This document shows, piece by piece, positions 534 through 43,752 of a DNA stretch of 64,000 bases. The translations under genes were made by a program, and so were the position numbers. The DNA lies in assembly GCA_964649705.1 (NCBI GenBank), contig CAZYRM010000006.1:6306-70305 (forward strand), written 5' to 3'. The stretch is from an uncultured Planctomycetia bacterium. Its GTDB lineage: Bacteria > Planctomycetota > MHYJ01 > WSZJ01 > CAZYRM01. Numbering within the stretch: position 1 is the first letter of the stretch; every line of letters begins with the position of its first letter. The notes under the pieces were generated by a model. The model searched no databases. It was not told the DNA's origin and worked only from the letters and a program-made list of their open reading frames with translations.

Positions 534-1289
534 GTGAATTCCAATCCCTCCATCGGGCTGTTCGCCTTCTCCCTCGGCGCGGGGTGGGTCGTTTCCCTCC
601 TGTTCGTCGCCTGGGGGAAGATCACGCGCAAGTTTTTCCTCATGAACGCCGCGTTCGCGGCCTTCTTCGCCGGGACCGGCGGCTGGCTCCTCTGGCGCGG
701 GGGCGCGGAGGCGTACGGGCCGCTGGGCGCCGGGGCCGCCTTCGCGCTCCTCCTCGCGGCGCTCCTCTTCCTCCCCGACGGCGCGGCCCGAGCCGGCCTG
801 TGGCTCGCCTCCGCTGTGTCCCTTGCGGGGATCGCCCTCGCCACGAAGGCGGTCTGGCCGGCACTCTCCATCGCCAGCGGCGGGATCGCCATGGGGACGG
901 TCTTGAGCGCCATGATCCTCGGCCACTGGTACCTCGCCGGGCCCGGCCTCTCGTTCGACCTGCTCGTCCGGGCCTCGAAGGTCTTCCTCGGGTCGCTCGT
1001 CGCGCGGCTCGTCCTGGTCCTCGTGGTCCTCGCCGTCTACCGGGACCTCGGGACGCTCGGAGGGGTCGTCTCGAACAGCTCCACGGCCGTCTTCCTCTCG
1101 GGCGTGCTCTGGACGCGGCTCGTGGCGGGGCTCGCGGCGCCCATCGTCTTCGCGTGGATGGTCTGGCAGTGCGCGCGGATCAAGAGCAACCAGTCGGCGA
1201 CGGGGATCCTCTACGCGACGATCGTGTTCGTCCTTGTCGGGGAGGCGCTGGCGCAGTATTACAGGGCCCAGACCGGGGTGCCGGTGTAG
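534..1289 (+). CDS. hypothetical polytopic membrane protein
   Basis: 251 aa ORF, multiple hydrophobic helices (GWVVSLLFVAW, LLLAALLFL, LVLVLVVLAV etc.). Confidence 0.5.
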   Translation: MNSNPSIGLFAFSLGAGWVVSLLFVAWGKITRKFFLMNAAFAAFFAGTGGWLLWRGGAEAYGPLGAGAAFALLLAALLFLPDGAARAGLWLASAVSLAGIALATKAVWPALSIASGGIAMGTVLSAMILGHWYLAGPGLSFDLLVRASKVFLGSLVARLVLVLVVLAVYRDLGTLGGVVSNSSTAVFLSGVLWTRLVAGLAAPIVFAWMVWQCARIKSNQSATGILYATIVFVLVGEALAQYYRAQTGVPV

Positions 1290-1303
1290 GAGGTGTGAGA
1301 GGA

Positions 1304-1572
1304 TGTCGTTCAAGCACGAGGTGCTTCAGCAAGCGTGGTGCCGGAGCGGGGCGCAGTGCGAGTGCAAGGTGAAGGACCACGGACACCCGGGGCGCTGCAC
1401 GAGGCAGATGATCCACCCGAAGAAGGGGAAGCAGACGCCTGGCGGCTGGGAGGCCAAGAAGCACGACCAGGCCAAGCCCGCCGACGTCGAGAACACCCTC
1501 TGCCTCTGCTGGCCGTGCTACGCGCACGGCAAGACCGCCGCGCCGGCGGATGCGGGGATGAAGCGCAAGTGA
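1304..1572 (+). CDS. small HNH-nuclease-like protein (YajD-like)
   Basis: AGGAGG RBS about 10 nt upstream of ATG 1304. Motifs CECK...HP..GK..GG...N.LCLCWPC fit the HNH C-C-H-N-C-C pattern. Confidence 0.45.
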
Positions 1573-2021
1573 GCGCACAGGTAGCCTGGAGCTGCGTCGG
1601 CTGCGGGGTCCGCCTCGAGACGGAGCCCGTCGCGACGATCCCGTCCTGCCCGAGGTGCGGGGCGACGAACCCCTGGGCCCCGAGCGAGGAGGTCCTCAAC
1701 GGAAGGGGGCCGGACCGCTGCGCGGTCTGCGGACGGAGCGAGCTGTACCGGGAGAAGGTCGTGAACCGCGCCCTGGGGCTGGGCATCGTGATCGTCGCGG
1801 CCGTCCTCGCGCCGTTCACGTACTACATCAGCCTCGCCGTCGCCGCGGTCATCGACGCGCTCCTGTACCGGTTCCTAAGCGAGCGGGGGGTCTGCTACCT
1901 GTGCCGGGCGGAGTATCGCGGGTTCCCCGGAATCCCCTCGCTGGGGAAGTTCGACCTGCACGTCGCCCAGGTGATGACCCGCTACAAGTGGCCTCCTCAG
2001 GAGGCCGAGAAGCATGCTTGA
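1569..2021 (+). CDS. zinc-ribbon domain membrane protein
   Basis: GTG start overlapping upstream stop (GTGA); two CxxC pairs (CVGCG, CPRCG, CAVCG) then two TM helices. Confidence 0.45.
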   Translation: MSAQVAWSCVGCGVRLETEPVATIPSCPRCGATNPWAPSEEVLNGRGPDRCAVCGRSELYREKVVNRALGLGIVIVAAVLAPFTYYISLAVAAVIDALLYRFLSERGVCYLCRAEYRGFPGIPSLGKFDLHVAQVMTRYKWPPQEAEKHA

Positions 2022-2397
2022 CGCCGAATACAACGCGCAGGTGATGGAGCACTTCCTCAACCCGAGGAACGTCGGGGAGCTGAAGGACGCCAACGCCATC
2101 GGGACCGCGGTCAACCCGGCCTGCGGCGACACGATGAAGCTCTACATCAGGGTCGACGCCGGGCGGATCGTCGACCTCCGCTTCAAGACCTTCGGCTGAG
2201 GGGCCGCGATCGCGACGTCCTCGATGGGGACGGAGATCTTCCGTGGGAAGACGATCGACGAGGCCCTCGCGGTGACGAACGACCAGATCGTCGGCGCCCT
2301 CGGCGGCCTCCCCGAGCGCAAGGTCGTCTGCAGCGTCCTCGCCGTCTCGGCCCTCCGCGCCGCCGTCGATGAACTGCGGAAACGCGCGGGTCAGTGA
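2014..2397 (+). CDS. iscU: IscU/NifU-like Fe-S cluster scaffold protein interrupted by in-frame TGA at 2197-2199 (conserved Cys position); candidate selenoprotein or pseudogene
   Basis: N-term NPRNVG...PACGDTMKL...RFKTFG[TGA]GAAIATSSMGTEI...VVCSVLA matches the IscU core (E. coli FKTYGCGSAIASSS); same reading frame before and after TGA; GGAGG RBS 9 nt upstream of ATG 2014. Confidence 0.7.
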
Positions 2398-3914
2398 CGG
2401 AGCTTCTCGTACGCCTCCTTCAGGCGGTCCCCCAGGGGCTTCGCGTCGCGGCCGTCGTGGCACTCCGCGCAGATCGACGGCGACCCTCGCCGGATCAGCC
2501 CCTCCTCCTCGGGTGAGGCCGAATGGCGGCGACCGGGCCCGTGGCAGGTCTCGCACCCGACGTCCCGGAGGGCGGCGGCGTTCGCGTCGCGGGGCGAGTA
2601 TCCCGTCGGGTAGCCGTAGCCGGTGCTGTGGCACGTGATGCAGCCCGGGTAGTAGTGACGGTCCATGTTCTCGAGGACCTTGGTCGCGCTGCCGTGGGGC
2701 GTGGAGCTCCACTGCCGTGCCTGGGGCTCGTGGCACTTCAGGCACGCGTCCTTCCCCACGTAGCCGTCCGTGGGGTCGTTCTCCCTCGGCTCACTCGCAA
2801 AGCGGCGGGGCGCCGGTCCGGCGAGCGAGGGGTCCTCGGCGATGCGCCGCATGAACGCCTCGACCTGATCCGAGGTCCGCGCGTCCAGTTCGATCTTCTG
2901 CGCGATCTGGAACATCCCGTATGCGACGGGCGCGCCGTCGGCGCCCAGGTCGACGTAGCGGATCCCGCCGAAGCTCGACGAGGACGTCCCGAACAGCAGG
3001 AGCGGACCCACGGGCTCCATGGGGTCCTCGTAGACGACCCGGGTCCGCTCGTCCGTCAGCAGGCGGGAGGCGGCCAGGGGCCGTCCCGTCAGCACCAGGT
3101 CGGGCGGCGCGGGGAGCGCCGCGATCCGCGCGACGTCCTCGCGAGAGAGGTCCCCGGTCAGGACGACGAGGTCGCCTCGGCCCTTGAGCGGGGCGACGGC
3201 GGCGGCCGCCTGCGCGGCGGCGTCGGGGTGGCCCCAGACGGGCGGCTTGGGGCCCGCGGGCGCGACGCGCATTCCCGGCGGGGGCTCGGGGGGGCTGTCG
3301 GCGCACACGACGGAGAGGGAGCGGCCGCCCAGCGCCAGGGTCACGGGGAGGCCTCCAATCGTCAGGAGGGGAGGGCCCGCCGCGGCGAGCGAGGACTGCA
3401 GGTCGGCCGTCAGGAACCCCCTCCCGCCGCCGACGGCGAAGGCCGAGAACGGAAGGTCCTTCAGGATCGCCGCGTAGACCCGCTGTCGCTCGCGATCGAG
3501 GGGGGAGTCGCCGTCGAGCGCCCCGCCGGCGTCGATCAGCGCGGTGCGCGGCGGCCCCTTCGCGAGCCGTCGAAGGAGCGCGGCCGAGTGGGCGAAGCGG
3601 ACGTTCTGCTTGCACGCGCAACTGTCCAGGCGGGACATCGTGCCGCCGATCCACACGAGGCGCAGCTCCGCGGGGGCCTCTCGGATGGTGACGCGGACCT
3701 CGAGGCGATCCGCCTCCTCGGTCATCCGTACCGTCCGCGGAGTCGTAGGCGCGGGGGGGCGCATCGGCGCGACGACGCGCGGCGGTGAGGGGGCCGGCGG
3801 TCGTGCGGGGCGCGGAGTCCAGGCGGGGCGGGTGCCCGGCAGCGCGAGGCACACGAGCACGCCGACGCCGACCAGCAAGCTGGCCCTGCCAGTGGCGACG
3901 ATCGACCATCCCAT
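2391..3914 (-). CDS. multiheme cytochrome c family protein (4 CxxCH) with N-terminal signal peptide and large N-terminal domain
   Basis: CLKCH, CITCH, CETCH, CAECH heme-binding motifs in C-terminal 120 aa; start chosen at MGWSIVATGRASLLVGVGVLVCLA (longest ORF reaches 3986). Confidence 0.65.
   Translation of the reverse strand: MGWSIVATGRASLLVGVGVLVCLALPGTRPAWTPRPARPPAPSPPRVVAPMRPPAPTTPRTVRMTEEADRLEVRVTIREAPAELRLVWIGGTMSRLDSCACKQNVRFAHSAALLRRLAKGPPRTALIDAGGALDGDSPLDRERQRVYAAILKDLPFSAFAVGGGRGFLTADLQSSLAAAGPPLLTIGGLPVTLALGGRSLSVVCADSPPEPPPGMRVAPAGPKPPVWGHPDAAAQAAAAVAPLKGRGDLVVLTGDLSREDVARIAALPAPPDLVLTGRPLAASRLLTDERTRVVYEDPMEPVGPLLLFGTSSSSFGGIRYVDLGADGAPVAYGMFQIAQKIELDARTSDQVEAFMRRIAEDPSLAGPAPRRFASEPRENDPTDGYVGKDACLKCHEPQARQWSSTPHGSATKVLENMDRHYYPGCITCHSTGYGYPTGYSPRDANAAALRDVGCETCHGPGRRHSASPEEEGLIRRGSPSICAECHDGRDAKPLGDRLKEAYEKLRH
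3870..3893 (-). repeat. copy 1 of 24-nt in-frame element (GACCAGCAAGCTGGCCCTGCCAGT), encodes TGRASLLV in cytochrome signal region
   Basis: 22/24 match to consensus GACCAGCAAGCTGGCCTTGCCAGG. Confidence 0.7.
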
Positions 3915-4272
3915 GCCTCGTGGTCGCGGCGGCTCGGTGGACCCCGCGGTCGGGGGGGGCGGCTTGTGGGGGCGCTTCTTGGACATCGGCCTGGGGAATC
4001 CTCCTCGACGACCATGCTATCGATCGGCGAACGGAGGCTCAATCCTGTCGTTCGGCGCGGCCGGTGTTCCATGTCGGACGCGCGGGCGCAATCCCACCTG
4101 GAACCCCTGGCCGGTCCGATTTCCCTTCGGGCGCTTAACCGCCGATCGGGCAAGGCGTTCCAGTGCGAGGGGATTCCGCGCCTCGGGTGCGAGGCTTGCA
4201 CACCAATCTCCTTGATGCCCGGCGCGCCGGAACGTACCATTCGCGTTCCGGAAGGCATCCAAGGAGGCTCGG

Positions 4273-4794
4273 ATGGGTCTCGACAAGGGCCCCGACAAGA
4301 TCAGCAACATCTTCATCGGGAAGTACGAGGAGGTCGTCAAGTGGGCCCGGAGCAATTCCGTCTGGCCCATGACGTTCGGCATCGCCTGCTGCGCGATCGA
4401 GATGATGGCGACGGGCGCCTCGCGCTATGACATCGACCGCTTCGGGTCGGGCGCCTTCCGCGGATCGCCGCGGCAGTCCGACCTCATGATCGTCGCGGGG
4501 ACCGTGACCGCGAAGATGGCCCTCGTCGTGAAGCGCCTCTACGAGCAGATGCCCGAGCCGAAGTACGTCCTCGCGATGGGGGCCTGCACGGTCGGAGGCG
4601 GCCCGTACTACAAGTGGGGCTATCACGTCGTGAAGGGGATCGACAAGTTCGTCCCCGTCGACGTCCACGTCCCCGGCTGACCCCCCCGGCCCGAGTCCCT
4701 GTTGGAGGGGCTCATGCGACTGCAGGAGAAGATCCGCGCCCGCAGCATGGCCGTGCCCACGCGGGAGCCCGAGAAGTCGGCCACCGCGTCGTAG
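4273..4794 (+). CDS. nuoB: NADH-quinone oxidoreductase subunit B (NuoB/Nqo6) with in-frame TGA at 4678-4680 at the position of the 4th N2-cluster cysteine; candidate selenoprotein or pseudogene
   Basis: [21 protein letters not shown], then VDVHVPG[TGA][18 protein letters not shown] matching conserved VDVY(I/V)PGCPPRPEAL; same frame through TGA; continues to TAG 4792-4794. Confidence 0.8.
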
Positions 4795-4802
4795 GAGGAG
4801 AG

Positions 4803-5939
4803 ATGCCCGAGCTGGTCGAACGAGCCCTCGACACGGAGGAGATGTTCCTCAACATGGGGCCGCAGCACCCCAGCACGCACGGGGTGCTCCGCCTCCTCCT
4901 CAAGACCGACGGCGAGATGGTGGAGGAGATCACGCCGTACATCGGCTACCTCCACCGCTGCGCCGAGAAGATCGGCGAGAACCTGACGTACCTCCAGTTC
5001 ATCCCGTACACCGACCGCACCGACTACCTCTCCTCGATGTCCGACAACCTCGGCTTCTGCCTCGCCGTCGAGAAGCTGATGAACATCGAGATCCCGCCGC
5101 GCGCGGTCTGGCTGCGCGTGATGATGGCGGAGCTTCAGCGGATTGCCAGCCACCTGCTCGCGCTCGGGACGTTCGGGATGGACGTCGGCGCCTTCACGCC
5201 GTTCCTCTACGCCTTCCGCGAGCGGGAGATCGTGCTCAACCTCTTCGAGCAGGCGAGCGGCGCCAGGCTCCTCTACAACTACGTGCGCCTCGGCGGCGTC
5301 GCGCGCGACATCACGCCGAAGTTCGTCAAGGAGCTCCAGGAGTTCATCGACATCTTCCCGGAGCGCGTGGACGAGTACAACCAGCTCCTCACGGAGAACT
5401 CGATCTTCATCCAGCGCGCGGCGAACGTCGGCGTGCTGCCCGCCGACGTGGGGATCGCCTACGGCTGCACGGGACCGACGCTCCGCGGGTCGGGGATCCC
5501 CTGGGACGTCCGGAGGGTCGACCCTTACAGCGGGTACGACCAGTTCCAGTTCGAGGTCTGCGTCGGGAAGGGGAAGAAGGGCGCGGTCGGCGACTGCTGG
5601 GACCGGTACGAGGTCCGCATCCTCGAGATGCTGGAGTCGCTCAAGATCGTCAAGCAGGCCCTCGACGGACTGCCCGCGGGGCCGATCATCTCCCCGAAGC
5701 TTCCGAAGACCGTGAAGCCGAACAAGGGGGAGGCCTACGCGCGGATCGAGAACCCGCGCGGCGAGATCGGCTACTACATCGCCTCGGACGGCAAGGAGAA
5801 GCCGTACCGGGTGAAGGTGCGCGCCCCCAGCTTCAGCAACCTGTGCGTGCTCCCCGTGCTCGCGCGGGGGTACCTGGTCGCCGACGTGGTCGCCATCCTG
5901 GGAAGCCTCGACATCGTCCTGGGGGAGATCGATCGCTGA
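4803..5939 (+). CDS. nuoD: NADH-quinone oxidoreductase subunit D (NuoD/Nqo4), 49 kDa subunit
   Basis: MGPQHPSTHGVLRL...YLHR.AEK...ends DIVLGEIDR (NuoD-type C-terminus, no NiFe CxxC motifs); AGGAGG RBS upstream. Confidence 0.85.
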   Translation: MPELVERALDTEEMFLNMGPQHPSTHGVLRLLLKTDGEMVEEITPYIGYLHRCAEKIGENLTYLQFIPYTDRTDYLSSMSDNLGFCLAVEKLMNIEIPPRAVWLRVMMAELQRIASHLLALGTFGMDVGAFTPFLYAFREREIVLNLFEQASGARLLYNYVRLGGVARDITPKFVKELQEFIDIFPERVDEYNQLLTENSIFIQRAANVGVLPADVGIAYGCTGPTLRGSGIPWDVRRVDPYSGYDQFQFEVCVGKGKKGAVGDCWDRYEVRILEMLESLKIVKQALDGLPAGPIISPKLPKTVKPNKGEAYARIENPRGEIGYYIASDGKEKPYRVKVRAPSFSNLCVLPVLARGYLVADVVAILGSLDIVLGEIDR

Positions 5940-6472
5940 TGGTGCTCGACTACTTCAAGCAGGTCGTCCACGGCCTCTACACGGTCCTGGTGGGGATGAA
6001 GATCACCTGGCGCTACCTCTGGGTGAAGCCGGTGACGCTCCAGTACCCCGAGGAGATCTGGCATGTGCCGGACGGGTACCGCGGCTACCACGAGTACAGC
6101 GAGGCGCGGTGCATCGGCTGCTTCATCTGCGTGAAGGCGTGCCCGGTCGACTGCATCAGCATGGACATCACGCGCCAGAGCGGCGGGAAAAAGGCGATCA
6201 TCCACTCGTACGTGATCGACTTCACGAAGTGCATCTTTTGCAACCTCTGCTGCGAGCCCTGCCCGACGGAGCCGAAGTCAATTTGGATGGGCAAGGCCTA
6301 CGATATGAGCGTCCTGGCGGAGGACAAGGACAAGCTCGTGGTGGACTACTGCAAGCTCAAGACCGAGTACATCCCGTGGGCCGTGGGGGAACACATCCCG
6401 CCGTACAAGCCGGGGTCGGACGACAAGGCGCCGGAGCCGAAGGCTGCCGTTCCTGCGGGGAAGGGCGCGTAG
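5939..6472 (+). CDS. nuoI: NADH-quinone oxidoreductase subunit I (NuoI), 2x[4Fe-4S] ferredoxin subunit
   Basis: CIGCFICVKACP and CIFCNLCCEPCP motifs; ATG overlaps nuoD stop (ATGA). Confidence 0.8.
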   Translation: MVLDYFKQVVHGLYTVLVGMKITWRYLWVKPVTLQYPEEIWHVPDGYRGYHEYSEARCIGCFICVKACPVDCISMDITRQSGGKKAIIHSYVIDFTKCIFCNLCCEPCPTEPKSIWMGKAYDMSVLAEDKDKLVVDYCKLKTEYIPWAVGEHIPPYKPGSDDKAPEPKAAVPAGKGA

Positions 6473-8852: not shown

Positions 8853-8896
8853 GCGGTGGATCGACGCCCGTGAGGGCGTCGTATGAGGTGAACGCC

Positions 8897-9961
8897 ATGC
8901 CTGTGACTGAAGCCGACGTCCTGAAGCACCTGTCCAAGGTCGCCGACCCTGAGTTGGGACGCGACATCGTCTCGCTCGGAATGGTGAAGGACGTCAAGAT
9001 CGACGGGGGCGTCCTCGCGTTCGAGTTCGAGCTGACGACGGCCGCCTGTCCCATCCGCGAGAAGTTCGAGGGGGACGTCCGGAAGGCCGCGGAGGCGATC
9101 CCGGGCATCCGAGAGGTCCGGATCAAGGTCACCGCTCGCCCGGCGGCCGCCGGCAAGGTCGGGGCAATGATCCCGGGCGTGCGCAACGTGATCGCCATCG
9201 CGAGCGGAAAAGGGGGCGTCGGGAAGTCGACCGTGACCGCGAACCTCGCCCTCGCCCTCGCGAACGCCGGTACGCGCGTCGGCCTCATGGACGCCGACGT
9301 CTACGGGCCGAGCATCCCGATCATGTTCGGCATCACGAAGGAGAAGCCCGTCGGCGTCGGGGACAAGATCACGCCGATCGAGCGCTACGGCATCAAGATC
9401 ATCTCCGCGGGGTTCTTCATCGCGGAGGGGGAGGCGCTGATCTGGCGCGGGCCGATGCTCGCGGGGATCGTGAAGCAGTTCCTGACCGACGTCGCGTGGG
9501 GGGAGCTCGACTACCTCCTCGTCGACCTGCCCCCGGGCACCGGAGACGTCCAGCTCACGCTCTCCCAGATGATCCCGCTCACCGGCTCGGTGATCGTGAG
9601 CACGCCTCAGGACGTGGCGCTGATGGTCGCCGCGAAGGCGATCTACATGTTCCAGAAGCTTAACGTCCCGATCCTCGGGATCATCGAGAACATGGCCTGG
9701 TTCTCCTGCCCGCACTGTCACGAGCGCACCGACATCTTCGGCAGCGGCGGGGCGCGGAAGGCGGCCGACCGGGCGGGATACGTCTTCCTCGGAGAGGTCC
9801 CGCTCGACTCGGAGATCCGCGAGGCGGGGGACAAGGGGAAGCCGATCGTCCTGGCGCAGCCCGACTCGACGCTGTCGAAGGCGTTCACGCAGGTCGCCTT
9901 CAACATGGCGGGCCAGGTCTCTGTGCGCAACCTGACGACGGAAGAGATCAAGGTAGGGTAG
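8897..9961 (+). CDS. apbC: Mrp/ApbC/NBP35 family Fe-S cluster carrier ATPase with N-terminal DUF59 (MIP18-like) domain
   Basis: Walker A AIASGKGGVGKST, CPHC (FSCPHCHE) motif, DUF59-like N-term; GAGGTG RBS. Confidence 0.85.
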   Translation: MPVTEADVLKHLSKVADPELGRDIVSLGMVKDVKIDGGVLAFEFELTTAACPIREKFEGDVRKAAEAIPGIREVRIKVTARPAAAGKVGAMIPGVRNVIAIASGKGGVGKSTVTANLALALANAGTRVGLMDADVYGPSIPIMFGITKEKPVGVGDKITPIERYGIKIISAGFFIAEGEALIWRGPMLAGIVKQFLTDVAWGELDYLLVDLPPGTGDVQLTLSQMIPLTGSVIVSTPQDVALMVAAKAIYMFQKLNVPILGIIENMAWFSCPHCHERTDIFGSGGARKAADRAGYVFLGEVPLDSEIREAGDKGKPIVLAQPDSTLSKAFTQVAFNMAGQVSVRNLTTEEIKVG

Positions 9962-10028: not shown

Positions 10029-11114
10029 ATGCGGGAGGCCGACGAGCGCGCCTGGGCGAACCCGTCGAGCCTCCACGCCGACGGGATGGCCGCGCGGAGG
10101 CTCGTCGAGGGGGCCCGAGAGACGGTCGCTCGCGTGGTCGGAGGCGATCCGCGGGAAATCGTGTTCACCAGCGGGGGGACCGAGAGCGACAACCTCGCGG
10201 TGATCGGGATGGCCCGGGCGCTCCGGGCCAGGGGGCGCCACGTGGTGACCTCGCGGATCGAGCACCACGCCGTGCTGCACGCCTGCGACGCGCTGGCCAG
10301 AGAGGGCTTCGAGATTGGTTTCGTCGGCGTCTCGCCCTCCGGGGCTGTCGACCCGGACGAGGTTGCCCGCGCGCTGCGGCCCGACACGGTCCTCGTCTCC
10401 GTGATGCAGGCGAACAACGAGACCGGGGCGATCCAGCCGATCGCGGAGATCGCGCGGCGCTGCCGCGAACGCGGCGTTCTCGTCCACACGGATGCGGTGC
10501 AGGGCGCCGGAAAGGTCGCCATCGACGCGCGTTCGCTCGGCGTGGACGCGCTCTCGATCTCGGCCCACAAGCTCCACGGGCCGAAGGGCGCGGGCGCGCT
10601 CTGGCTTCGCGCGGGGGTCCCGATCGAGCCTCTCCTGCACGGAGGGGGCCACGAGCGTCAGCTCCGCGCCGGGACGGAAAACGTGGCGGGAATCGTGGGC
10701 CTCGCGCGGGCGCTGGAGCTCGCGGAGGCGGATCGCGCCGCGGACGTGCCGCGGATCGCGGCGCTCCGCAATCGACTTGAAAAGGGGATCTTGGACCGCA
10801 TCCAGGGCGTCCGCGTGAACGGCGCGAACCGCGTCGCGGGCCTGCTCAACGTCTGCTTCGACGCGATCGAGGGGGAGGGCGTCGTCCTGATGCTCTCGCA
10901 CCAGGGGATTTCATGCTCCACGGGCTCGGCGTGCACCTCGTCGAGCCGCGAGCCCTCCCACGTCCTCGCCGCGATGGGCGTGCCCCCGCGGACGGCCCAG
11001 GGCAGCGTCCGCTTCTCGCTCGGCCGCGACAACGACGAGGCGCAAATCGACGCGACGCTCGACGCGCTCGTGTCCGTCGTGCAGCGTCTCCGCGCCATGA
11101 GCCCGTTCGCGTAG
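10029..11114 (+). CDS. iscS: cysteine desulfurase (NifS/IscS class I aminotransferase V); conserved N-terminus (IYLDHAATT) lies upstream of first ATG with no canonical start
   Basis: SAHKLHGPKG (PLP-Lys), SSGSACTS active-site Cys loop; conserved region begins at about 9975 in same frame after TAG at 9954. Confidence 0.8.
   Translation: MREADERAWANPSSLHADGMAARRLVEGARETVARVVGGDPREIVFTSGGTESDNLAVIGMARALRARGRHVVTSRIEHHAVLHACDALAREGFEIGFVGVSPSGAVDPDEVARALRPDTVLVSVMQANNETGAIQPIAEIARRCRERGVLVHTDAVQGAGKVAIDARSLGVDALSISAHKLHGPKGAGALWLRAGVPIEPLLHGGGHERQLRAGTENVAGIVGLARALELAEADRAADVPRIAALRNRLEKGILDRIQGVRVNGANRVAGLLNVCFDAIEGEGVVLMLSHQGISCSTGSACTSSSREPSHVLAAMGVPPRTAQGSVRFSLGRDNDEAQIDATLDALVSVVQRLRAMSPFA
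11088..11114 (+). repeat. direct repeat A (CTCCGCGCCATGAGCCCGTTCGCGTAG), 3' end of nifS
   Basis: 25/27 identical to 12581-12607. Confidence 0.7.
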
Positions 11115-36599: not shown

Positions 36600-38666
36600 A
36601 TGGAGCCTAGCATGAACTGGGGAGGCTACCTGCGCGCAGCGCTCCGCGGGCTCGTTCAGGCGGTCCCGGTCGTCGGGCCGATGGTCGCCGAGTGCGCGAA
36701 GCACGCCGAGGAGGAGAGGTTCCAGGCCCACGTCGAGGCGCTCGCGCTCCGCGTCGCCCGGGGGGAGCGGGGGAGGACCCAGGGCCTCCTGCGGCTCACC
36801 GAGCAGGAGGTCGAGCAGTCCGTCGCGGACGCCGTTCGCGGCCTGTCTGGGCCCGATCGTGAACGCCTCGTGGCACCCCTCGCGCATCCGCCGGCGGGGG
36901 CGCCTGCCGATTCGGTGCGCGAGGCGTTGACGAGCGTGCTGGCGGGGCTCTCGGAGTCGCCTCGAGTCCGACACTCTCTTCTGACCTGCCTCTCCGCGCG
37001 CATCGAGCAGGGTCGACCTCTGAATCCTGGTACGCGTCTGGACAAGTACGAGGTTCTCGAGCTTATCGGCGTGGGCGGGATGGGCATGGTGTACCGCGCG
37101 AGGGACCTGGAGCTGGACCAGGACGTGGTGATGAAGCTCCTGAGGCCTCAGCTCGCGCAGGACCCTGCGTGCGTCCGTCGGTTCATCGAGGAGGCGAAGG
37201 TCGGGCTCGAGTTGACGCACGAGGGCATCGTCCGCGTGAGGGACGTTCGTCGGCACGATGGGACGCCCTATCTCACGATGGAGTGGGTGGACGGAGGGAC
37301 GCTTCGCGGACTGCTTGACGCGCGCGGGAAGTTGACCTGGGCCGATGCCGAGCCGATCGCACGGGGGTTCCTGCGGGCCCTGGCGTACGCGCATGGGAAG
37401 GGCGTGCTGCACCTCGACGTGAAGCCGGAGAACGTCCTCCTGCCGCGCCACGACGCGCCGAAGCTGTGCGACTTCGGCTTGGCGAGGGCCTTGGCGCGCC
37501 CTGGCGGCTTGTCGATGCTGCCCGGCGCTGGGACGCCCGACTACATGGCGCCCGAGCAGCGCGCGGGGGGCGCGGTGGACAAGCGGGCGGACGTGTACGC
37601 GGCGGGCGTGGTGCTCTACGAGTTGCTCGCCGGCGCCTTGCCTGATCGCCACTCCCCGACGCTGGCGGAGGGCCTCGGCGTGGAGGCGCACCTCTCGGAG
37701 GCGGTGGAGGCGGCGTTGCAGCGGAACCCCTCGCTCCGTCCCGCAGACGCACAGGCGCTTCTGGAACGGCTGGGTGCCCCTCGCGTCGAGGTCGTCGCTT
37801 CGCCACGGCAGGCGCCGATCGCTGCGAATGCGCCCAAGGTCGTGGATGCACCCAGGCCCGCGGAGCGCGTCCTCGTGTCGCGCCTCGTCATTCCAGGTCT
37901 GGTCTTCTTGCGTGTGAACGAGAAGGGGTACGAAGAGTACCGGCACGAGAAGACGGGGATGGAGCTAATCCACGTGCTGCCGGGGGAATTCATGATGGGG
38001 CTCAAGTCGATATGGACGGACAGGGAGCCCGTGCATCGCGTGGAGCTAGATGGTTACCTCATTGGCAAGTACCAACTAACGAACGGCGAATACCGGGCGT
38101 TCCACACGGCGACCAGGCACCCGGCGCCCTGGCCGCCAGAGCGGAGCTACCTGTATGAGTACTTCACAGACTCACGGTTTGATGCGCATCCGGTCGTTTA
38201 CCTCGGCTGGGAGGAGGCAAAGGCCTATTGCGATTGGGCGGGGCTCAGACTGCCGACGGAGGCGGAGTGGGAGTACGCGGCGAGGGGGAGAGACGGGAGG
38301 ATGTACCCATGGGGAAACGAGAAACCGGACCGATCGCGGACGAACTTCGGAGACCTGTCAGATCGTGATTATTACACGCGTGCCCGGGGCTCGTATCCGG
38401 CAGGGGCGAGCGCGTGCGGCGCGCAAGACATGGTAGGAAACGTGTGTGAGTGGTGCTCGGACTGGTACGATGAAACGTACTATGAGACCTGTGGTCACGG
38501 GGCAAGGAACCCGAGGGGGCCCGGTAGCGGCTCCTCCCGGGTGGTGCGGGGAGCCTCCTGGAACATGTATGGCGGGATCCGGCCCGTGACGAGTCGCGAG
38601 TGGCGGCACCCGGCGAACCGGGGCTACGTCGTCGGTTTCCGTGTTGCGAGGAGTCTAGCGCGCTGA
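36600..38666 (+). CDS. Ser/Thr protein kinase fused to C-terminal formylglycine-generating-enzyme (FGE/SUMF1) domain
   Basis: kinase: [33 protein letters not shown]; FGE: [45 protein letters not shown]. Confidence 0.75.
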
Positions 38667-42588: not shown

Positions 42589-43752
42589 GTGGAGAGCCGG
42601 GGCGGCCAGCTCGTTCAGGCCCTGCGTGCCACGCTCGACGCACGGGCAGCGAAGTCGATCGCCGAGGCCCTGCGGGAACTTCCCGGTGGCCCGTCTGGCG
42701 GGGACGTGCGAGACGCACACTCCATCCTCGTCGGACGCCTCTCGGACAAGCCCAAACCCTGGGACTTGGAACCCATCGCAGAGGCCATCCGCGAGGTGCC
42801 TGGGGACCTCTCCGCCAACGATGCGGGCAGGTGCCAGGTTGCCATCCTCTCCGCCCTGGAGTCCGAGGGGACGGACAGGCCATGGTTGATCGGCCGGGCG
42901 ACCGCCGTGATTGCGACCAAGCTGACCAGGGAGCAAGCGGATGGCGCGCTCCATCAGTGGATCGGAGCGGTTGCAGGGGCCACGGACCGCGGCAAGCTCT
43001 CGGTCGTGGCGGCCATGGTCGCCTCGTGCCCATGGGCGATGCCGGACGAGCTCGTGAGCGCCGCGTTTGCGAAACTCTGGTTGGAGGCCGCCGGTCCCCG
43101 CGAGAGCGACTCGCCCGAGGGGCGACCCCTCGACGATCAACGCGAGATACAAGGGCGATGGCAGGACGAGCAGTTGATGGCCGGTCTCTGCGCGGTTGCC
43201 CGCCGACTGGGGAGGGAGGATGCCGAGGGGGCACAGAGGGATGCCCTCCACGCATTGGGGGCGGCGAAGAGCCTCGCGCAATTCGAGAGGATCGCCATCG
43301 TCCTTTCCGCGATCCCCCGGGAGGTGCCACGCGGCATATGGAAGGCCGAGGCGCTTCGCTTGTTGGGCTCGCCCGCCGGATCGCCGATGGAGTCCCTCTC
43401 CGTCTTCAGCCGGCACGATGATGTGATCTGCAGGCTCGCGCGGAAGCTGTCGCCCGAGGAGGCGAACGAGGTGCTCCTGCGTGTCGCGGAAGTGGTCGAC
43501 CACGCCAGGGCGCAGTGCCAGTCCTCGCCCGTGAGGCAGGCGGTCCCAGACCTCGTTGAAAGGGTGGATGCCCAGAGTGCGATCGACTATCTCAAGTGGC
43601 CCTCTTGTGTCGGGGAGGTCCGGGCGAGCGCCCTTGCCGCCCTTGAGAAGCGCACCGGGCGCGCCTTCGGTGGCAACCTGTGGCAGGCCGTCGTCTGGGC
43701 GGAGGCGGCAGGGCTCGATGTGCGGACCCCGCCTCGGCGACCTGGCCGGTGA
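42589..43752 (+). CDS. hypothetical helical-repeat protein (part 2; possibly continuous with 41062-42459)
   Basis: same reading frame as upstream ORF; similar composition. Confidence 0.4.
   Translation: MESRGGQLVQALRATLDARAAKSIAEALRELPGGPSGGDVRDAHSILVGRLSDKPKPWDLEPIAEAIREVPGDLSANDAGRCQVAILSALESEGTDRPWLIGRATAVIATKLTREQADGALHQWIGAVAGATDRGKLSVVAAMVASCPWAMPDELVSAAFAKLWLEAAGPRESDSPEGRPLDDQREIQGRWQDEQLMAGLCAVARRLGREDAEGAQRDALHALGAAKSLAQFERIAIVLSAIPREVPRGIWKAEALRLLGSPAGSPMESLSVFSRHDDVICRLARKLSPEEANEVLLRVAEVVDHARAQCQSSPVRQAVPDLVERVDAQSAIDYLKWPSCVGEVRASALAALEKRTGRAFGGNLWQAVVWAEAAGLDVRTPPRRPGR

Follow-up and report, generated by a model that had tools for sequence, protein, structure and literature searches.

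The stretch of DNA analysed here (64,000 nucleotides, in the following referred to as the window) contains an iscU gene for an Fe-S scaffold protein whose reading frame is interrupted by a TGA at the position of a cluster-binding cysteine. This raises the question of whether the codon terminates a truncated protein, reflects an error, or is decoded as an amino acid, and if so, as which one. A sequence-only reading of the window had proposed a selenocysteine (Sec) site and had referred to a second case in the nearby gene nuoB. The features of both genes and of their surroundings are compiled below.

Table. Features of the iscU-nuoB region; positions refer to the window.
Feature	Position	Strand	Remarks
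iscU, IscU/NifU_N-type Fe-S scaffold gene	2014..2397	+	127 codons including the in-frame UGA; own terminator an ordinary TGA, 2395-2397
Candidate Sec62 of iscU, in-frame UGA	2197..2199	+	Second cluster ligand, corresponding to E. coli IscU Cys63
SECIS-like element of iscU	2208..2238	+	Upper stem 2216-2222/2226-2232; loop 2223-2225; lower stem 2208-2211/2235-2238
nuoB, complex I 20-kDa/PSST subunit	4273..4794	+	173 codons including the in-frame UGA; TAG stop 4792-4794
Candidate Sec136 of nuoB, in-frame UGA	4678..4680	+	VPG-C-PP cysteine, fourth and last ligand of cluster N2
SECIS-like element of nuoB	4689..4717	+	Upper stem 4693-4700/4706-4713; loop 4701-4705; lower stem 4689-4690/4716-4717
nuoD	4803-5939	+	Ordinary TGA stop at the family-profile end; directly downstream of nuoB
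nuoI	5939-6472	+	Follows nuoD
ApbC carrier gene	8870-9961		Same cluster as NifS
NifS-type cysteine desulfurase	10029..11114	+	TIGR03402, E=1.3e-137, below its cut-off

Translation of positions 2014-2400 yielded a single frame (...DLRFKTFG-stop-GAAIATSSMGTEIFRGKTIDEA...; also given as ...DLRFKTFG-stop-GAAIATSSMGTEIFRGK...), which is broken solely by this TGA. With a cysteine placed at the stop, the 127-residue IscU matched the Pfam family NifU_N (PF01592) over residues 5-125 with 148 bits (E=1.7e-43; cut-off 22 bits), and its top NCBIfam match was TIGR03419 (NifU_clost) with 163 bits, which is under the equivalog cut-off of 188. Alignment to solved IscU/NifU chains placed the stop on the Cys of FQTFGCAAAIATSS in the IscU of A. 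fulgidus (4eb5); the equivalence to Cys63 of E. coli is by motif. In the set of three ligands (Cys37, Cys63 and Cys106 in E. coli), the first and the third are encoded by ordinary Cys codons in the motifs PACGD and VVCSV, and the middle one by UGA. Both the continuous frame with the TGA at the ligand cysteine of FKTFG-C-GAAIA and the ordinary codons of the other two ligands had been claimed from the letters of the window, and translation and structure-chain alignment bear this out.

The case cited from nuoB also exists. The TGA is located 2.5 kb downstream of that in iscU, in the context VPG-stop-PP, and aligns with the cysteine in VPGCPP of the solved PSST/Nqo6 chains. NuoB, a member of family PF01058, matched the profile TIGR01957 with 237 bits (cut-off 143). 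The four ligands of cluster N2 follow the pattern CC ... C ... CPP, in which IACC and GAC are present as Cys, while UGA occupies the place of the CPP cysteine. Even the nearest other NuoB sequences do not exceed 81% identity, and every one of them is full length. In a frame-aware scan of the 64 kb, no in-frame TGA other than these two was flanked by coding-like sequence on both sides. A possible third in-frame TGA at 43750 was rejected, as its extension reads as non-coding antisense of another ORF.

Relatives of both genes carry cysteine at these positions. The nearest IscU homologue (P0001) originates from a sister groundwater lineage and shows 82% protein identity, and this sister lineage (L001) possesses TGC at both the iscU and the nuoB site. 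Cysteine was likewise found at the position of the iscU stop in all 72 motif-bearing loci of the genome collection, the best of which is only 64% identical, and in the top protein matches inspected. The Sec/Cys pairing that an alignment of homologues should reveal is therefore seen with P0001 as well as with 72/72 loci of the genome collection. The Cys-form orthologues (P0001/P0131; L001-L005) share the gene order of the window, i.e. cytochrome c (opposite strand), iscU, nuoB, nuoD, nuoI, methyltransferase, aldehyde dehydrogenase, ApbC and NifS, with 82% identity for IscU (protein) and approximately 92% for nuoB (DNA); they differ from the window in carrying TGC at either site and in lacking the hairpins downstream. 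The C-terminal tail of NuoB (window 4747-4755) reads SMAVPTRE in most UGA forms, SMQVPTRE in L100 and SMQCPTRE in the Cys form, so that the Cys-form NuoB (L001) has one extra cysteine, 25 residues past the ligand position.

The hairpins were compared in six DNA variants of iscU (window, L096, L098, L099, L101 and L102) and four of nuoB (window, L011, L096 and L100). Downstream of the iscU TGA, a hairpin with a 5-bp stem and a 7-nt loop had been described at 2215-2231. The hairpin is present, but it occupies 2216-2232 and is better drawn with a 7-bp upper stem (CGUCCUC/GGGGACG, including one G-U pair) and a 3-nt apical loop GAU (GGU in L096), starting 16 nt after the UGA, above a lower stem of 4 bp. 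In the RNAalifold consensus of the six variants, numbered from the U of UGA, the lower stem comprises nt 12-15/39-42, the upper stem nt 20-26/30-36 and the apical loop G27-A/G-U. The element in nuoB consists of an upper stem of 8 bp and a lower stem of 2 bp, with the apical loop GUUGG at 4701-4705; in the consensus of its variants, the upper stem comprises nt 16-23/29-36 and the loop is G24-U-U-G-G. The nuoB hairpin (-13.0 kcal/mol) is identical in 4/4 UGA forms, and the upper stem of iscU is invariant in 6/6. Since the stems are invariant, no covariation occurs, and RNAalifold detected no compensatory changes in either hairpin among the six iscU and four nuoB sequences. The support for the hairpins comes from conservation and thermodynamics, not from covariation.

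The conservation of the hairpins follows the UGA. Within the 42-48 nt after the codon, the UGA forms share 90-100% identity among themselves and 71-76% with the Cys form, whereas outside this zone the distance to the Cys form is similar to that of the most diverged UGA forms. Synonymous differences to the Cys form were found in 7 of 8 nuoB codons after the UGA compared to 16 of 135 upstream (Fisher p=8e-6), and in 7 of 11 iscU codons compared to 9 of 61 (p=0.0015). This cluster of mostly synonymous changes destroys the upper stems in the Cys form, where no qualifying hairpin exists in iscU and one of only -0.5 kcal/mol in nuoB. The observations that would refute the Sec site according to the sequence-only reading were not made in the form given there: a relative with an intact Cys codon exists, but it lacks the hairpin, which all UGA forms keep. 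If the same peptides were recoded synonymously with the codon usage of the window, a hairpin at least as good arose within the allowed spacing in 1.6% (iscU) and 1.9% (nuoB) of the cases. The signal stands out less against the plain background: control codons in this DNA of 70% GC were followed by a hairpin as good as that of iscU (-8.5 kcal/mol) in about 10% and as good as that of nuoB (-13 kcal/mol) in 1.6%, and the nuoB hairpin is the strongest one after any TGA-terminated segment in the window. The MFE z-scores of 64-nt stretches were unremarkable; in sequence of 70% GC they are uninformative, and codon-aware controls were used instead.

It is almost certain that the UGA is recoded in iscU and nuoB, and both codons are very probably Sec codons with SelB/SECIS-dependent insertion. 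The proposal of a Sec site in iscU is supported by the alignment with cysteine, by the conservation among the variants, by the purifying selection described below and by the hairpin specific for the UGA forms; Sec as the inserted residue, SelB as the responsible factor and any biochemical effect are what we infer from these features. The hairpin would recruit SelB with Sec-tRNA(Sec) to the UGA, and Sec would be inserted in place of termination. As a consequence, the second cluster ligand of IscU, at the position of E. coli Cys63, and the fourth N2 ligand of NuoB, the cysteine of CPP, would each become a selenolate. The selenol in IscU, being more nucleophilic and having a lower pKa, could hasten persulfide capture or the release of the cluster. 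A selenolate on N2 could shift the potential or raise the stability or the oxidative robustness of this cluster. It weighs against Sec that a Sec as Fe-S ligand in two core housekeeping proteins is unusual, that the hairpins show neither compensatory changes nor a bulged U of the E. coli type, that hairpins like that of iscU are frequent in this DNA, that no sel genes were found in the window and that the trait has a narrow distribution.

The codons might also be read through, depending on the hairpin, with insertion of Cys instead of Sec, so that both proteins would be chemically ordinary. Such a decoding could employ a Cys-charged tRNA resembling tRNA(Sec), or Cys-tRNA(Sec) formed under selenium scarcity. 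Systems with Cys-inserting tRNA(Sec)-like molecules exist, and all evidence for recoding fits them equally well. It is also consistent with this explanation that selA and selD were not found in the window. Family scans gave no match to SelA, SelB or SelD among the approximately 50 ORFs of the window, and Rfam searches at gathering and permissive thresholds retrieved two tRNAs and chance-level matches only, but no tRNA-Sec and no SECIS family. However, the lack of selA, selB, selD and tRNA-Sec in the window is uninformative because 64 kb are only a part of a genome. Cys-inserting systems are rare, and a UGA with a hairpin that yields Cys offers no obvious gain over the TGC of the sister lineage; nevertheless, UGA and hairpin have been retained at two loci across species-level divergence. 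Insertion of Cys is therefore regarded as improbable. A further ORF of the window (36600-38666) encodes a Ser/Thr protein kinase with a fused C-terminal domain, which matched EgtB, SenA (selenoneine synthase) and GldK below the threshold (NF041186, E=3e-21, 76 bits, cut-off 420); the SenA-type match does not count as evidence for selenium metabolism.

It is very unlikely that both genes are truly split and that their N- and C-terminal parts are synthesised as separate proteins, working without the ligand residue. An ATG at 2224 does follow the UGA of iscU, and gene callers report a C-terminal fragment of 57 amino acids. However, L096 has GTG where iscU of the window has this ATG. Furthermore, the IscU codons 63-69 (GAAIATSS), which extend from the UGA to the ATG, are conserved at the protein level and show synonymous change only. 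In nuoB, the first start lies 12 codons past the UGA, yet these codons are conserved as well. The dN/dS values 3' of the UGA are approximately 0.1-0.25 and the same as 5' of it; together with the exclusively synonymous change in GAAIATSS, this shows that the frame is translated through the UGA. Separate pieces would also be devoid of an essential cluster ligand.

That nonsense mutations or assembly errors account for the TGAs, and that iscU and nuoB are pseudogenes, is extremely unlikely. Gene callers do split iscU and nuoB at the TGAs. However, the identical truncated products (61 amino acids for IscU, 135 for NuoB) occur in the Hainich groundwater assemblies H51 R1/R2/R3 and H43, and the same products were also detected in Logan assemblies of other runs. 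The protein collection contains eight distinct N-terminal IscU fragments of 61 amino acids in one 90% cluster, a further cluster of such fragments at 82% identity, nine variants of the C-terminal IscU fragment and three variants of the NuoB product of 135 amino acids. On the DNA level, the TGA is kept in 6/6 iscU variants, which come from different samples, and in 4/4 nuoB variants; outside the post-UGA zone, the variants are 83-94% (iscU) and 93-98% (nuoB) identical. L096, a JGI contig of 153 kb, shares 87% identity with the window along 4.4 kb and retains both TGAs. With a sequence divergence of 13-17% among assemblies, a shared systematic assembly artefact is excluded. The purifying selection downstream of the TGAs likewise speaks against pseudogenes, as do the precise coincidence of both TGAs with ligand Cys codons and the conserved hairpin behind each of them. 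The argument of the sequence-only reading against a random error is confirmed by the same TGAs in independent assemblies and diverged variants and by the selection 3' of them.

TGAs in iscU that look like errors do occur elsewhere. A scan of the whole JGI metagenome collection with the motif K-T-[FY]-G-TGA-G-[AS]-A-I-A gave four matches, of which L096 is a true relative and three are unrelated singletons with the TGA at the same cysteine (L094, 2543-2545; L095, 19-21; L097, minus strand, approximately 3672-3674). Their GC contents are 51%, 58% and 32%, respectively. The downstream hairpin is absent in L094 and L097; in L095, the TGA is located 19 nt from the contig end, and a hairpin of -8.1 kcal/mol is present. 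These three TGAs, near contig ends and in two cases without a hairpin, are probably errors. The UGA trait has a narrow distribution, being limited to a single groundwater lineage of Planctomycetota.

A use of UGA as a general sense codon, to which the prevalence of TAG among the stops of this 70% GC window might point, is already contradicted within the window and of negligible probability, because TGA terminates approximately 17 other genes, including nuoD, whose TGA falls exactly at the family-profile end, iscU itself ends in TGA, and there are just two in-frame TGAs with coding sequence to either side. The approximately 51 predicted genes use TAG about 31 times, TGA 17 times and TAA 3 times. 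At about 70% G+C, TGA is usually the dominant stop.

A desulfurase partner is present near iscU: the NifS-type enzyme, encoded in the same gene cluster together with the ApbC carrier, is likely the sulfur donor to the IscU scaffold. Upstream of iscU (window 534-2021), small conserved ORFs without a family match were observed, coding for a membrane protein of 251 amino acids followed by proteins of approximately 90 and 150 amino acids with CxxC pairs, the latter of which overlaps the start of iscU. These ORFs accompany iscU in every relative (L006, L098 and L102), where they are located behind ferredoxin and Zn-ribbon genes.

In contrast to a complete nuo operon, only nuoB, nuoD and nuoI occur together; scans with family profiles found none of nuoA/C/H/J-N in the 64-kb window. 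The remaining subunits of complex I may be encoded elsewhere in the genome, and the three genes may belong to a complex I whose genes are split or form a module of their own. In L001, L006 and L096, nuoB, nuoD and nuoI are also found without other nuo genes nearby. They adjoin a divergently oriented gene for a multihaem cytochrome c of 531 amino acids on the minus strand (2391-3986). The genes for the methyltransferase, the aldehyde dehydrogenase, ApbC and NifS are located downstream of the three nuo genes, and this order is kept in the Cys-form relative.

Whether the conversions in IscU and NuoB are functionally linked, with thiolate replaced by selenolate both on the scaffold and on the terminal N2 cluster, is doubtful. 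A Sec scaffold could serve a Sec client, or both proteins could have been exposed to a common redox or oxidative pressure in groundwater. In case of such a link, a natural selenium-ligated N2 and a natural Sec-IscU would be available to probe the roles of the ligands. The residue at the position of IscU Cys63 was seen to form a disulfide with Cys328 of the desulfurase and was proposed as persulfide or sulfur acceptor that relays sulfur to Cys106 (PMC2854127). A natural Sec at this position would be relevant to the debate on the order in which sulfur is transferred, and with a selenolate, N2, the cluster from which quinone receives its electrons, would exist in a natural variant. If Sec is confirmed, scaffolds of the IscU/NifU type and NuoB would constitute two further bacterial selenoprotein families, with selenium at an Fe-S ligand of core housekeeping proteins and not in a typical thiol-redox motif. 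Current annotation pipelines split or discard iscU and nuoB in the UGA lineage.

The putative elements resemble those of SelB/SECIS-dependent genes of the E. coli fdhF type in that an in-frame UGA is paired with Cys in relatives and a stem-loop is located within the coding sequence. In E. coli, the upper stem-loop comprises nt 15-31, begins 11 nt after the UGA and carries G23/U24 in the loop (PMC8659212). In comparison, the upper helix starts here 12-16 nt after the UGA, and a G (and U) is present at the 5' side of the loop, namely at nt 24 in nuoB (GU at 24-25) and at nt 27 in iscU. Unlike in E. coli, both hairpins lack a bulged U, and the loop of iscU (GAU/GGU) is only 3 nt long, that of nuoB being GUUGG; SECIS elements differ among bacteria (PMC12013277). 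A further difference to the fdhF type is that IscU and NuoB are absent from known lists of selenoproteins and that SelA, SelB, SelD and tRNA-Sec were not found in the 64-kb window.

Several selenoproteins are predicted to bind Fe-S clusters or metals, such as a UxxC Fe-S cluster domain protein, a 2Fe-2S CopZ-like protein, a HesB-like protein, HdrA and FrhD/VhuD (PMC13188914, PMC9312934). As in IscU and NuoB, Sec replaces in these a cysteine that is expected to bind or neighbour an Fe-S cluster, but they belong to other protein families. The listed 'NADH:ubiquinone oxidoreductase subunit E' is a protein of PF02508 (Rnf/Nqr type) and not NuoB. The family table of the 2026 review (PMC13188914) contains neither NifU, IscU, PF01592, PF01058, Nuo nor 'complex I', IscU does not occur in the 2022 review (PMC9312934), and NifU and IscU are absent from the GOS study of 2008 and from the BSepDB and deep-Sep papers. 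Full-text literature searches for selenoproteins with NuoB or NifU gave nothing relevant, and nothing was found for Sec-IscU, Sec-NifU or Sec-NuoB; in NCBIfam release 20, the models matched were the ordinary ones for NifU and NuoB, and none was specific for selenoproteins. The decoding mechanism would be the known one, and IscU and NuoB appear to be new as selenoprotein families.

The [NiFeSe] hydrogenases, redox enzymes of a family related to complex I, are a known case in which Sec serves as metal ligand. NuoB and NuoD are related to hydrogenase subunits, and in the [NiFeSe] hydrogenases Sec is located on the large subunit, where it binds Ni. The candidate Sec of NuoB, in contrast, is found on the homologue of the small subunit, at the position of a [4Fe-4S] ligand.
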